A stretch of 62,737 bases of DNA, filler included, from Globobulimina sp. (Eukaryota): the NCBI GenBank assembly GCA_003354225.1. It is 7 parts of 7 records of this genome, joined end to end, with 100 filler letters (N's around TTAATTAATTAA, not from the genome) between each part and the next. Parts side by side here need not be neighbours in the genome. Positions count along the whole stretch, not along the records: positions 36,185 to 44,990 come from PIVH01000058.1; 6 more parts are not named here. One strand, given 5' to 3'. Under the pieces are notes generated by a model, which searched no databases, was not told the origin of the DNA, and was given only the letters and a program-made list of their open reading frames with translations. This document shows positions 36,185 through 44,990 of this stretch, in pieces. The position numbers and the translations under genes were made by a program. Positions within the stretch are counted from its first letter, which is position 1; the number at the start of each line of letters is the position of its first letter.

Positions 36185-36479
36185 AATTTAAAATTAAAAG
36201 TATTAATTAAAAAAAAAAAAAAAAAAAAAAAACCAAAACAAAAGATTTTTAAACCAGTGAAAACTGTATGACACAAATTCGAGTAACATCTGAAAATTAA
36301 CAACTCTTATTAAATTTATAAATTTTATAAATTATATAAATTGTCTCTAATTGCTAAATCTTGAAAATCATTAAAATCATCAAAATTATATAAATCTCTC
36401 TGAGTATACAAAAGTATAACGTTTTCCCTCAGGTTTTTCTTTAGAACTGGACCGTTACCCAGTTATATCTGGTTTGACC

Positions 36480-36606
36480 ATGTACACCCAACAAGTTGTT
36501 GCGGATCAACAGTTAAACTCACAGTATTCACAATATCGAGTTGATAATAGCAATGCGACACGAGGGCATCCAGGGCATCAAACTCAAAATCAAACAAATC
36601 TAAATC

Positions 36607-36643
<37 letters not shown>

Positions 36644-39600
36644 TGCGCCTCATGCATATATCACACAGCAAAGACCAGTCTATCAACAGCAACAGCCAGC
36701 ACTACAACCACGTCACCAACGGATTCTAACTCAGCAAGCACATCACTTTGTTGCCCCAGTGGAGCAACGTACATTGCCCACGTTGTATCATCCACACCCA
36801 ATGACTCAAGTGCAACATCAGCAACAGCAACATCAACAATATAATTATGTCTCGACACCGTATGTGGATCAAGGATATTATCAACAGCCTCGACATATTA
36901 CAAACTACACACAGACCTCATTTATTACCCCGCAACATATCCCTACGAATGTTTCACCAATGACAAATTACATTCAGCCGGAACAACAACAACAGCAACA
37001 ACAGCAACAGAAACAATACCTAAAACCACCACATCCTCAGTACAGACCTATTAACTCCTCTTCGCATCCACATGATTTGCATGCGTCTATGCCTTTAACC
37101 AGCCATATCCCTGCACCAAGACACACTAGTGTCACTGCTATGGCGTTGCAAGCACAACAACAAGCACTGCTGCAACAGCAACAGCAACAGCGACAACAGC
37201 ATCCCACACCCAATTCAAATCCCGCGGTGATGGATCATACCACACCACAACAGAGACGGCGAAAAATGCGTCATGTTGGAGACCGACGAAAGCAGTCAAA
37301 ACACCGAAACAAACCAACACCAACCAAACCTCAGGATGTATCAATGGGGCTCGAGGGATTAAATGACTATAAATACAAAGCATCCGCACATCAGACTACT
37401 GAACCGCAGCGACTTTCACCGACGAAAAAAATGAGCCCGTCCCAGATAATCAGAGAGGCTGACACCGAGAGTCGAAAAAGAAGATCACCGCAGGACCTCT
37501 TTAAGAATGCATTGTTTGAACATTTTTTAGTCCGCGGCAAATTTGTGAAAATCTATTTTGATATTGCTGATGATAAAAAGAGGGCAGTGTGTTCTTTATG
37601 TCCTGTCCTGGCACCACCAATGAACTATTATTGTTCAGCGACGTTAAAAAGACATTTTAATTTCCATGGAAACAACCATCACCAACTCAGAGACGATATA
37701 AAGTTAGGTGTACTGTTTTATATAATTTGTATAATTTATATGATTTGTGTAATTTATATAATTTGTTAAATTTGCTAATTTTATGAGTCATGTAATTCAT
37801 ATAATTTATGTGACTAATAAGATGTACAAATTTATATACTTTAATGTTTGATATTATTTTACTAATTTCTAATCTGTTCAAAATGTGTACAGTGCATCAA
37901 TCAGGAAGGATTTCATCAAAAATCCAAAATGTACAGACGACTATCAAGTGAGGTGGCTGCGCAATTACGAGAATAAGAAAAACGGGCGACATACAAAAAT
38001 GCGCACGTTCACCAAACTCTGTAATTTGAAAGGAGTACCCATTCCGCAAATGGATGCGCGTTCACCTCGCACTGCATTACAAACTAAGCGCCGCAGTGTT
38101 GTATGTTTTTACTCTTTCTTTTTTTTTTTTGGTATTTGAAAAAAACAAAAAAACCATGTCTATGACTCTACTATTTAGGCAAACATGCCAAAGGAAGAGA
38201 TTGAATATTTTTATTACAATATTGTCGGTCAAAATAAACTTAGATTGTCAGAACTCACTCTGAAGGAATCGGAGGAGTTTGAATGTGAATACTGTTGGAC
38301 GCTATTTCGAAATCATCAGAGCGCATTGATGGATTATATTAAACATTCAGCAGACTGTGAATCGAAAAAATTTTTTCCGAAAGAGTTACGAGGTCAACAA
38401 TATTTGGACACAATTAAAATGCGATTAGGCATAAAACCTCGAGAGACACAAAGCGGGGTAAATGTGGGCAGTGGAGACAAAAAGGAATCTTCAAAAGAGA
38501 GTGGAGCCAACGATCAGCAATATGACGATGTTCAAATGGCTAATATTTCATGCAGCGATGTCTTGACCTCGAAAGCGCGCAAAAAACAAATCCGAAAGTA
38601 AGTAATTTTCTAAAATTTATATAATTTATATAATTACTACAATTCTGTAATTTATATAATTCAAAGAATTTATGCAATAGGAGTAATATATAATACTATT
38701 TATTATTGTATGCTTTCTGTGATATACCAATTCTCGAGGCCTATTTGTTTGATTTATATAATTTATTTGATTCTAATGATTGGTATAATTTATATAATTT
38801 ATATGATTGTACAATTTAATAAAATTGTATAAATTATATAAATCATAATAAATCTTTACTAAATATAAACTATAATGGGTGTGTGTCATCTTCTTTTGTA
38901 CCCTTTGTTGTTGTGTTTTAACTAATTTCATTAATTTTATTCATAACTAATGACAACATTTTGTAAAATGGATTTGGGATTAGTGATTGGTATGCATTTG
39001 GAGAATATTATTGGGGCAAAGAACTTAAAATTGTACGTAGCCATAATGAAAATGTGTGGCTTAGCAAATGTCCATTAGCAGATAAAGACGCATGCGCATT
39101 TTTTCATATCGAACATTTACGCTATAAGCAATTAGTTTATCTTGCGACACATATTGGTATCCTTTTTGTTAATTGTGTACAATGTTCACAGCATGGCGGT
39201 GACGCAATAAATTTATTATATGATCAAAAGCAAATCGTCTGGGGGACAGGGGAGTTTGTCCAGTACAAAGGCATTCATCACAATACTGACAACTCACCCG
39301 TTAATTTAGTAGTTATCGACACCAAAGAGACTACAAAGAATAAAAAAAAGACAGCCCCTAAATATACCAAGACCAGATCCAAAATCCATTGGGATGAAAG
39401 CCTTTTACAGTTGGCATTTGAACAGGTTAAAGGTAATTTTAATTTCAATGCGGTGTACAAACGCTTTGTGTATCACTATTCCTCTGAGTTTAAAAAGAAA
39501 TGCATTGAAAACAAGAAATGCAAAGACGATGTTTCATGGATACAGATGGTCGATGAGGCGAAGCTTATGTTTCCGTCATACTCTTCGTTTGTTGTCAAAT

Positions 39601-43308: not shown

Positions 43309-44067
43309 ATGCCAAAGCCAAAGCCAAGACGCAGATACAACACAAGAAATTCAAATCAACCGCTGGTGAATGCAAAGAAGAAAAAACGCTTCAAATTGGT
43401 GAATACAAAGAGGAAAAAACGCTTGATTAAGCAAATGAATGAGGTCTCTGCGCCGGAAACAGGACAAGAGTCTGATCAAAGCGAGAGTGAATACGATGCG
43501 TTGCATTTTCGAGCAAATCACAATAAATATACGGCATGTAGACGAGATGCGGCCACCGAGGCACCAATGAATCTCCATCCAATTGATAGTACTTTGAGCA
43601 CAGCCAATGCAACCAACACCAACAAAGATGCGACCACGGACAAACCAAACAATAATCGTCCAATGGATACCAGCACAAATACATCACAGAACAACAATCA
43701 GTATCCAAACCAAAACCAGCCCTGGACAAAATTTGAAACTGCACAGGTGTCGACTTTTATCGCGACGGTGGCCCGCAACCTTCATACTAACAAGGCTAAC
43801 TTAGCCGAAATTGCGAAGAAAGTTGGACGATCACCAACCGCAGTCAGAATACGTGTGGTAATGCTTAAAAAATTAAAATTGGCTGCCCAAGAGCGAGTAG
43901 ACACTGCAGTTAATAATCGTGTGATACGCAATCGAAAGAAGGCAGCCAATAAGGCTCAAAGAGCCAGAGCAAAAGAGAGAAAAAGAAAAAGAAAACCCCG
44001 CTCACGAAAGGAAGAAGTGGATAATGATATCTATGATAATGAATATTCTTCCTCAGAGAGTTGCTAA
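43309..44067 (+). CDS. Basic nuclear protein with a Myb/SANT-like helix-turn-helix
   Basis: PWTKFETAQV...LAEIAKKVGRSPTAVRIRVVMLKK; Lys/Arg clusters at both ends. Confidence 0.7.
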   Translation: MPKPKPRRRYNTRNSNQPLVNAKKKKRFKLVNTKRKKRLIKQMNEVSAPETGQESDQSESEYDALHFRANHNKYTACRRDAATEAPMNLHPIDSTLSTANATNTNKDATTDKPNNNRPMDTSTNTSQNNNQYPNQNQPWTKFETAQVSTFIATVARNLHTNKANLAEIAKKVGRSPTAVRIRVVMLKKLKLAAQERVDTAVNNRVIRNRKKAANKAQRARAKERKRKRKPRSRKEEVDNDIYDNEYSSSESC

Positions 44068-44450
44068 TACACTGTCAGTTTATTTTTTATTTTTTTTTAT
44101 TTGATAATTTTTTTTTTGGCCTGGTTTCTTATGTCGTGTAATCTTAGTTTTAAATTCTAGTATTTTCTATAGTTTTTTTTTTAATATACAAAAGTTGAGT
44201 ATCAAAAGTAGACTGTATCCTCGCACAAAACTAAAAATTTACGTTAGTGATAATAATCTTATAAATTGTATAACTCCACTAATTCTTTAAAATCATTTCT
44301 TTTTACTAAATTCTATAAATTGTGTAAATTGTACAAATCATATTAAGTAGTATCATTGTATTCATCATATAAATTTCATAAATTATTATAGTTTGTAACA
44401 CAGAGTTGAAAAATCTTTTGCAAAATCAAAAAAAAAAAAAAGCTTAGATA

Positions 44451-44862
44451 ATGACACAGCTGAACAAAGAACATAAAGAGGCCACAAATGAACTCACATA
44501 TTTAGCTTTAGAACGGTGTCATGGAAATGGTACTGAAATAATTATTGTGCCCAAAGAATTTGTACTACTTTATCGTATTGGTGGTCGTGGAACAGCACGC
44601 TATGAAAGATTTGAGGTTATTATCTTTTTTGACAAAGCCAAATATATAAAAACAATGTATTACTAACAAGACTCTATGGACAGGATCTCAATACTCTTTA
44701 TCTTCGTTGATTAAACACATGGACGAGTCAGTATACAGGAGTGCGTGGATAAATAATTATGGCGATTTGAAAACTATTTTCGATGAATTAAAATCATCAC
44801 CAAAACGTTTACAAGAGATTAATAAAAAAAAAGTTGAACAGTTACCCAGATTATCAAAGTGA
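44451..44862 (+). CDS. Small 118-aa protein, 2 exons (44451-44615, 44671-44862), weakly chromodomain-like
   Basis: A 55-nt GT-AG intron with TACTAAC near the acceptor joins ...RYERFE|TLWTGSQYSLSS...LSK* in frame. Confidence 0.5.
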
Positions 44863-44990
44863 AATGTGGCGTGTAAGCATCTTTACCAACAAAAAAAAAA
44901 AAAAAAAAAAAAATTTTTTTTTCAGTTCCCTCACTCCCATTTTTTTTTTTGTGTTGTTTTGTGTTTTTTTTTAATATCCTATAAACTACT

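Follow-up and report, generated by a model that had tools for sequence, protein, structure and literature searches.

What kind of locus places a transposase gene at the head of a row of same-strand genes for nucleic-acid- and chromatin-type proteins, and would such genes move together? The question is raised by contig 5 of a 62,737-nucleotide stretch of Globobulimina sp. DNA (GenBank assembly GCA_003354225.1), here called the window, which consists of seven contigs of 9006 to 8768 bases ordered by falling length. The locus is the whole of contig 5 (36185-44990, 8.8 kb, G+C 34%). An initial annotation had read it as a large DNA transposon with four tandem genes, encoding a transposase, an ASCH protein, a Myb/helix-turn-helix (HTH) protein and a small chromo-like protein. 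As far as the sequence goes, it holds that contig 5 carries a catalytically intact transposase gene, and that the genes on the same strand are joined by a shared non-coding repeat built from the nine-base unit TATAAATTA; that the five genes travel jointly as one transposon is plausible, but unproven. In a stop-to-stop scan of open reading frames (ORFs), all sizeable supported ORFs of contig 5 lay on the plus strand, as had been described, but the genes number five rather than four, a PHD-like gene in second place (G2) having been overlooked. The five genes fall within 8.4 kb, with intergenic spacers of 69-380 nt, and their models contain six introns, four in the transposase gene (G1) and one each in G2 and G5. 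Splice sites are predictions that rest on GT..AG boundaries, on reading frame and on collinear alignment with relatives. No housekeeping gene was recognised on contig 5, which agrees with the annotation.

The identity of G1 was approached through exon 4, which we used as the query of an exhaustive HMMER search of 1.84 billion representative proteins. This search returned 27 relatives at E <=1e-3, 14 of which were found at <=1e-10 and one at <=1e-30; the top relative, P0001 (1.3e-57, 30% identity), aligned over its full length. None of the G1 exons has a Pfam match, even at E up to 10, and the 27 relatives have none at E <=0.01 except for one chance-level row, with nothing meaningful up to E 10. 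A profile of the family searched against PDB sequences gave chance-level rows only and found no solved transposase. Word-indexed protein searches with exon 4, the family alignment and the ASCH protein found no relatives, but this method needs shared 5-residue words, so the result is no evidence of absence. The conserved motifs of the family follow one another in the order R-E-x3-D-G-T, E-[S/T]-H, G-x-D-x3-R-D, E-x-[S/T]-H-x2-R and, near the C-terminus, S-N-K-N-E-x2-H. Among the rows covering each position, the first Asp (D1) is invariant in 20/20, the second (D2) in 18/18 and the Glu in 7/7, and the His and Arg of the fourth motif are each present in 14/14. All of these invariant residues are present in the window copy of G1, and some 370 residues separate D2 from the catalytic Glu.

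The relatives also say something about the history of the family. Full-length members are single ORFs of 781-864 aa, and P0001 and P0002 are intronless. Eleven relatives are fragments that cover the N-terminal part, with lengths of 181-381 aa and 31-45% identity to the reference copy P0004; ten of these eleven end at one alignment position (P0004, P0006, P0008, P0009, P0011, P0012, P0014, P0015, P0018 and P0023), while the eleventh, P0019, breaks off earlier. The C-terminal fragments P0016, P0017, P0021 and P0024-P0027 start just past the same point, before the E-x-T-H-x-x-R motif. This common stop and start point probably reflects an intron shared by those lineages, one that is absent from the window copy, P0001 and P0002. 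Several deep lineages with invariant catalytic residues and a sparse, patchy spread suggest that a transposon family fits better than a conserved host gene. In P0003, a long run of Asn and, after it, Asp residues lie within the C-terminal third of the transposase, a low-complexity insertion of the kind common in very AT-rich protist genomes.

Structure prediction points to the same enzyme class. In an AlphaFold2 model of P0001 made on the family alignment (pLDDT 82.8, pTM 0.75), D242 lies in strand 239-244, D320 follows strand 314-319 and E690 sits in helix 688-699. In this predicted model the placement of the three residues corresponds to the canonical RNase H-fold arrangement, the defining feature of the DDE (RNase H-fold) transposase/integrase superfamily. 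We compared the model without bias against 48,161 solved chains and took the best 50 rows. The top row was ISCth4, an IS256-family transposase (Z 9.5, root-mean-square deviation 6.7, 357/401 residues aligned, model residues 1-741); next among the best 50 came Hermes (hAT; Z 8.0, 166 aligned), Tn5 (6.8) and TnsB (6.6), and later rows held retroviral integrases, piggyBac, Mu, RAG1 and Transib. DDE transposases and integrases make up 29 of these 50 rows, and the remaining 21 align only with the C-terminal helical domain (~791-864), a domain similar at Z 5-6.3 to three-helix DNA binders of the homeodomain/Myb type. A second-look alignment agreed, with ISCth4 at 9.5 and 9.4 and Hermes at 8.3 and 7.6. 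ISCth4 leads Hermes by only 1.2-1.5 Z, with no eukaryotic MULE structure in the match lists. Foldseek searches with the model ranked ISCth4 first in the PDB, at an E of only 0.1, and gave no matches in BFVD. On the predicted fold, the family would be placed nearest to Mutator/IS256, with hAT a close second; IS256 is a prokaryotic group similar to MULE transposases, according to PMC6446971. Relatives and structure together confirm G1 as a DDE transposase gene, as first proposed, from a family that has no Pfam model and is undescribed at the sequence level. Clusters of the Atlas are leads only: one for DUF6729 at 0.89, for which a literature search was empty, and MULE/Transposase_mut clusters at 0.79-0.80.

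The features of G1 are given below; period-9 arrays of the repeat, in these lines and later, were called by Tandem Repeats Finder (TRF), and its limits are given separately where marked.

36480-41615, plus strand: G1, five exons, stop codon at 41613-41615
36480-37702, plus strand: exon 1, a 449-aa open frame with a Gln-rich N-terminal region; 3' boundary tentative
37703-37892, plus strand: intron 1, with an antisense 9-mer array at 37717-37809 (0 sense, 4 antisense)
37893-38100, plus strand: exon 2, an open frame, basic, no domain recognised; GTATGT donor at 38101
38101-38178, plus strand: intron 2, 78 nt, GTATGT...TAG, array-free
38179-38597, plus strand: exon 3, with a candidate start ATG and, by eye, a C-x2-C...H...C motif
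38598-38983, plus strand: intron 3, GTAAGT...TAG, with antisense arrays at 38614-38673 and 38752-38853 (1 sense, 6 antisense)
38984-40789, plus strand: exon 4, the transposase core, conserved in the 27 relatives
39675-39698, plus strand: D1, in REYSIDGT, exon 4
39918-39941, plus strand: D2, in GTDHAYRD, exon 4
40128-40151, plus strand: E-x-S-H-x-x-R motif, exon 4
40790-40888, plus strand: intron 4, 99 nt, GTATTT...TAG, nearly all antisense array (TRF 40799-40887)
40889-41615, plus strand: exon 5, with the catalytic Glu in SNKNEKIH (41034-41057) and the C-terminal helical domain

The 3' part of this model is the better anchored. The junction of exons 4 and 5 is secure: exon 5 aligns collinearly onto the C-terminus of P0001 (residues 649-860 of 864, BLASTP 9e-21) and also matches P0007 (7e-10). 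Intron 4 is lineage-specific, because the intronless P0001 and P0002 are continuous across that region. Exon 4 must splice to an upstream exon, as no in-frame ATG precedes the block conserved in the relatives, and exon 3 is in phase with it and offers an ATG. Further upstream, exons 1 and 2 comprise a Gln-rich region of about 400 residues plus a C-x2-C...H-x3-H motif (BED-like, by eye) close to the end of exon 1, where the intron donor GTTAGG is one of three candidates. Exons 1 and 2 may be part of G1 or of a separate upstream gene; alternatively to being intron 2, 38101-38178 would be an intergenic spacer if a separate gene begins at the ATG at ~38187. The A-rich spacers AAAAAAACC(A/C)AAAA are alike at 38106-38160 (between exons 2 and 3) and 41616-41660 (between G1 and G2). 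The CAA/CAG tracts of exon 1 (36606-36643, 36982-37016 and 37172-37195) reach a depth of hundreds to thousands in all three public runs that we consulted (X1, X2 and X3, discussed below), an excess which indicates that Gln-codon repeats are very common in that sample.

What joins G1 to its neighbours is the repeat. Tandem arrays of TATAAATTA, with variants that include TATAAATCA, TATAAATTG and TACAAATTA, occupy four of the six introns (in G1 and G2) and three upstream regions (of G1, G3 and G5). The upstream arrays are these:

36296-36345, plus strand: G1 upstream array (TRF 36307-36342), ~140 nt before the ATG at 36480; 3 sense to 1 antisense over 36185-36479
42715-42816, plus strand: G3 upstream array (TRF 42723-42813, 10.1 copies), 100-190 nt before the ATG at 42916; 7 sense to 0 antisense
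44296-44345, plus strand: G5 upstream array (TRF 44307-44338), 110-145 nt before the ATG at 44451; 5 sense to 1 antisense over 44068-44450

In the window, the exact unit is found 21 times, where 3.87 +/- 2.01 copies would be expected; 0/100 shuffles reached 21, and 15 of the 21 copies are in contig 5. Outside ORFs of at least 100 aa, motif density is 9.8/kb in contig 5 as compared with 0-1.06/kb in the other contigs, and TRF called no period-9 array of the motif in the other six, so that the repeat-laden non-coding style noted earlier as peculiar to this contig is borne out. The arrays are also oriented: counted as YRTAAATT against its complement, upstream and intergenic DNA has 15 sense to 2 antisense copies and introns 1 to 15, and inverted-repeat pairs in contig 5 show the same orientation rule. 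G2 starts 118 nt past G1 and G4 starts 69 nt past G3, and neither spacer (41616-41733, 43240-43308) holds an array. As arrays precede G1, G3 and G5 only, this hints at three transcription units, possibly dicistronic.

The genes downstream of the transposase are as follows:

41734-42536, plus strand: G2, exons 41734-42091 and 42247-42536, a basic protein ending in a C4HC3 (PHD-type) zinc finger
42092-42246, plus strand: G2 intron, with an antisense array at 42111-42194
42916-43239, plus strand: G3, single exon, 107 aa, a stand-alone ASCH-domain protein
43309-44067, plus strand: G4, single exon, 252 aa, a basic protein
44451-44862, plus strand: G5, exons 44451-44615 and 44671-44862 around an intron of 55 nt, acceptor tentative

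The finger of G2 was read from its translation as the ligand pattern C-x2-C-x13-C-C-x-C-x4-H-x2-C-x13-C-x2-C; the protein has no Pfam match, and its matches among PDB sequences are weak (JARID1D-PHD, a RING-CH and SHPRH-PHD fingers, E 0.058-0.21). G3 scores 25.1-26.9 bits against Pfam PF04266, for which the cut-off is 21.2, and it matches TTHA0113 (1wk2/2dp9), a Thermus ASCH protein of solved structure, over residues 6-99 (E 9e-7) as well as the phage family phrog_3136 (3.8e-5); the predicted ASCH gene is thus confirmed, on sequence, as a genuine stand-alone ASCH protein. The same gene (42916-43236) has a sub-threshold resemblance to MOZ/SAS (MYST) acetyltransferases (24 bits against a cut-off of 32.2; KAT8 chains at E ~0.008). 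A literature search on the ASCH domain with transposase or transposon found nothing on a eukaryotic element.

The two remaining assignments of the initial annotation fared less well. For G4, the supposed Myb/HTH gene, there are sub-threshold hints only (an HTH_AsnC-type match at E 0.035, a phage HTH family of the phrog set at E 0.048 and an Atlas Myb cluster at 0.76), with no Myb match in Pfam and no match among PDB sequences. A single-sequence model of G4 (pLDDT 62.9) shows three helices in residues 144-190, which run into a long basic helix; Foldseek rows for it are mostly HTH domains, at E 3.4 or worse, and a wide structure search gave coiled-coil rows only, driven by the long helix. G5 had been called chromo-like, a description that no search supports: neither of its exons matches the chromo family at E up to 10, nor does G5 match any other family.

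The other contigs supply the setting. They are joined by spacers of N44 + TTAATTAATTAA + N44 at 9007-9106, 18082-18181, 27114-27213, 36085-36184, 44991-45090 and 53870-53969, and ORFs that cross these joints are artefacts. Only two clear housekeeping genes are present in the window, both on the minus strand: an intronless one at 3071-5143 for prolyl-tRNA synthetase, whose editing domain is N-terminal, and one at 7544-8734 for a WD40 propeller protein. A LINE-like ORF at 18359-23911 (plus strand) has endonuclease/exonuclease/phosphatase, RVT_1 and RNase H domains, and a second at 31931-35692 (plus strand) has RVT_1 alone and a codon usage unlike that of the first. Very long ORFs without a Pfam family, of 2305 aa and 1290 aa on the plus strand, lie within 9108-16025 and 27215-31087, and three successive ORFs of 987, 512 and 1047 aa at 45091-52764 (minus strand), also without a Pfam family, may be one giant gene. 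No tRNA and no Rfam family was found in the whole window. Because the other contigs carry tRNA synthetase and WD40 genes, LINE-like retroelements and long ORFs, we take the source material to be eukaryotic.

To judge how many copies of the locus exist, we turned to three public runs. X1 contains contig 5 (0.96 of sampled words), which is missing from X2 and X3, two further runs of that sample. At a likeness of at least 80%, X1 covers contig 5 at a word depth of 9.6-31 in 26/30 bins, and the coding bins at 39713-40594 have a depth of 22.7, which equals that of the one matching contig. A few bins stand higher, at 677 for the Gln-codon repeat, 99.5 (~4-fold) for the A-rich spacer that follows G1, and 46 and 51 for two array bins. 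The array bins are thus up only 2- to 2.3-fold, which suggests that arrays occur at few other places and are not a genome-wide feature of introns; a few other X1 contigs of similar depth share the array, such as a 1435-nt record at depth 21.

With these results in hand, we tentatively read contig 5 as the interior of a large DNA transposon that carries several genes and self-recognition arrays and belongs to an undescribed Mutator/IS256-like family, or as a very recently immobilised copy of such a transposon. We favour this reading because a Mutator/IS256-like transposase, same-strand genes of DNA and chromatin type, and a nine-base array in their non-coding DNA occur together. The G1 transposase would bind element ends that lie beyond contig 5 and move the element by cut and paste, and G2-G5 (a PHD-type finger, an ASCH protein, a basic HTH-like protein and a small orphan) would ride along as accessory genes. 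The arrays would act as element-specific cis sites, those upstream serving as TATA-rich promoters. In Arabidopsis, VANC, a protein encoded by the element VANDAL21, binds the VANDAL21 motif and removes silencing, as described in PMC5735166. By analogy, arrays spread over the whole element may be docking sites for a DNA-binding protein of its own, VANC-like in function, and the PHD and ASCH products could link recognition of the array to chromatin or to modified nucleic acid. Self-recognition is plausible here as an argument that the locus works like VANDAL21, no relative of VANC being recognisable among its genes. A bolder version, which we consider unlikely and offer as speculation, is that a protist Mutator-like transposon independently evolved VANDAL-like self-marking, filling all of its non-coding DNA with the TATAAATTA array, sense in promoters and antisense in introns, which its own DNA-binding and reader proteins would read for expression or for shielding against silencing. 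Candidate readers of the array would be the HTH-like product of G4, or else the transposase through its zinc-finger and three-helix ends, together with the PHD and ASCH proteins, and the antisense arrays of introns could be internal antisense promoters that set the dose of the element.

Several results weigh against a mobile multi-gene element. No second copy at 80% identity or more is seen in X1, as the depth of the coding bins is that of a single contig, and neither the five genes nor the 27 relatives have a paralogue in the other six contigs. Between the ends of contig 5, which are A/T runs, we found no terminal inverted repeats (TIRs); the best local alignment is an A-run with a score of 43, against a shuffle mean of 28.2 and maximum of 40. 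No target-site duplication (TSD) was found, contig 5 having no flanking DNA; MULE ends have long TIRs, or are of a non-TIR type, with TSDs of 8-11 bp (PMC6446971). Searches of metagenome and viral contigs with exon 4 and P0001, and of genome contigs with exon 4, found no relative and hence no genomic context; the family alignments were too diverged for pattern scans of contigs. For G2, G4 and G5, neither relatives nor families could be detected. As for the arrays, the repeat filter of the read-mapping method may understate how common they are, the contrast in density draws on just ~3.6 kb of DNA outside ORFs of at least 100 aa in the other six contigs, and the seven contigs may not come from one organism (codon usage in contig 5 correlates only moderately with that of the other six, at 0.4-0.76). 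Simple replication slippage of an AT-rich seed could have produced the arrays, and selection against TATAAA- or AATAAA-like signals inside transcribed introns the strand rule; slippage combined with such selection could be enough to explain that rule. The case for a large element made in the initial annotation therefore stands in part: the intact transposase, the same-strand genes and the shared repeat are there, but not TIRs, TSDs, a second copy or paralogues.

Some of these observations would be natural if contig 5 were a host locus, with G1 a domesticated transposase, that is, a nuclear protein rich in Gln and bearing zinc fingers, possibly with its nuclease chemistry retained, set in a compact cluster of chromatin and nucleic-acid genes whose arrays are regional or organism-wide, either microsatellite-like or regulatory. 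The single copy in X1, the sole run with the contig, and the lack of TIRs fit such a locus, as do the few other X1 contigs of like depth that hold the array; so do the Gln-rich extension and four introns of G1, absent from its closest full-length relatives P0001 and P0002. Intact DDE residues occur in domesticated transposases too. PMC6446971 argues in this way for the 'Ghost' MULEs. The behaviour of the family speaks against this explanation, however, since it is sparse and patchy (27 clusters in 1.84e9, best identity 30%), all of its catalytic residues are invariant, and the at least 11 lineages related to P0004 with their common truncation point look like the product of transposon dynamics. 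To our knowledge, and without a literature search, no host gene cluster has a single oriented 9-mer array in both introns and promoters. On balance we regard a host locus as somewhat unlikely.

It is also conceivable that G1 alone is mobile, being a transposon with a single gene, or what is left of one, that inserted next to the unrelated host genes G2-G5; the arrays would then be a general trait of the organism's non-coding DNA. Most cut-and-paste elements have a single gene, the full-length relatives of G1 are single ORFs, and G3 and G5 have upstream regions of their own. However, the array marks G2, G3 and G5 as well, filling the G2 intron and the upstream regions of the other two, and this is why we disfavour a mobile G1 on its own; moreover, arrays are rare outside contig 5 in the window and show only mild over-representation in X1, and no element boundary, whether a TIR or a shift in composition, is visible in the 118 nt between G1 and G2. 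We find this explanation decidedly improbable.

Should contig 5 be part of a multi-gene transposon, it would add a lineage of DDE transposases that current family libraries miss altogether, which matters for repeat annotation in poorly sampled AT-rich eukaryotes. It would also be a second, independent transposon with its own recognition arrays and reader proteins, making VANDAL-type self-recognition a general strategy and not a plant curiosity, and introns built nearly wholly of array, such as intron 4, would bear on the origin of introns inside mobile genes. If the gene has been domesticated instead, its product would be a catalytically intact transposase-derived nuclear protein and a candidate for programmed DNA cleavage.

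How does the locus compare with known systems? Of the superfamilies named in the initial annotation, Harbinger, KDZ and CACTA find no support, the predicted fold pointing to IS256/Mutator and then to hAT; we reject membership in them for want of Pfam sequence support in G1 and, for KDZ and CACTA, in its relatives too. A viral origin was likewise rejected, there being no viral relatives or fold matches. PIF/Harbinger elements pair a transposase gene with one for a Myb/SANT protein, and contig 5 is like them in having, besides its transposase gene, a small gene whose product may bind DNA, but G1 has no match to the Harbinger DDE family of Pfam, and its fold neighbours are IS256 and hAT. Stand-alone ASCH proteins of the TTHA0113 type, from bacteria and phages, match G3 over nearly its whole length, whereas G3 lies in a eukaryotic, intron-bearing locus with a 9-mer array upstream. 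The hAT transposase Hermes is the second-best structural match (Z 8.0-8.3, 166-251 aligned) and, like G1, has a large helical insertion between D2 and the Glu, with a BED-like C-x2-C...H-x3-H upstream (by eye); in contrast, G1 has no Pfam match to the hAT dimerisation domain or zf-BED, and a smaller share of it aligns than with ISCth4.

ISCth4 and the eukaryotic MULE transposases have several features in common with the G1 family, ISCth4 being the best structural match, with a DDE triad spread over an RNase H fold. The G1 family has E-x-[S/T]-H after D2 and S-N-x-N-E-x-x-H around the Glu, and we take the E-x-x-H motif after D2 and S-N-x-N-E-x-x-H to be reminiscent of [C/D]xxH and N-x-x-E, which are signatures of the MULE/hAT/Kolobok group; the insertion before the catalytic Glu presumably brings that group to mind as well. 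Unlike MULE and IS256 transposases, however, the G1 exons and the 27 relatives match neither MULE (PF10551) nor Transposase_mut (PF00872), nor any other Pfam family, at E up to 10. A zinc-finger-like N-terminus and extra ORFs are further points of likeness to MULEs, which often carry additional ORFs such as mudrB, mutB, vanB and vanC, and among which VANDALs have no clear TIRs, according to PMC6446971.

As a system, the locus most resembles VANDAL21 (Hiun) of Arabidopsis, a Mutator-superfamily element with three genes, the transposase VANA, VANB and VANC (PMC5735166). The two differ in the motif itself, which is YAGTATTAY there and TATAAATTA in contig 5, and in its orientation, which is constant there and flips between upstream regions and introns here. 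The accessory genes of contig 5 are PHD-type, ASCH and HTH-like, with no recognisable relative of VANC, and its host is an AT-rich eukaryote rather than a plant. Yet both are multi-gene loci, with a Mutator-type transposase in VANDAL21 and a probable Mutator/IS256-like one in the putatively mobile contig 5. The nine-base motif of VANDAL21 is arrayed in introns, in intergenic DNA and in non-coding stretches at the termini and is rare elsewhere in the genome (PMC5735166), and contig 5 likewise has a dense tandem nine-base motif in introns, intergenic and upstream DNA that is rare in the other contigs. In both, the arrays appear to be dynamic and tied to intron structure.

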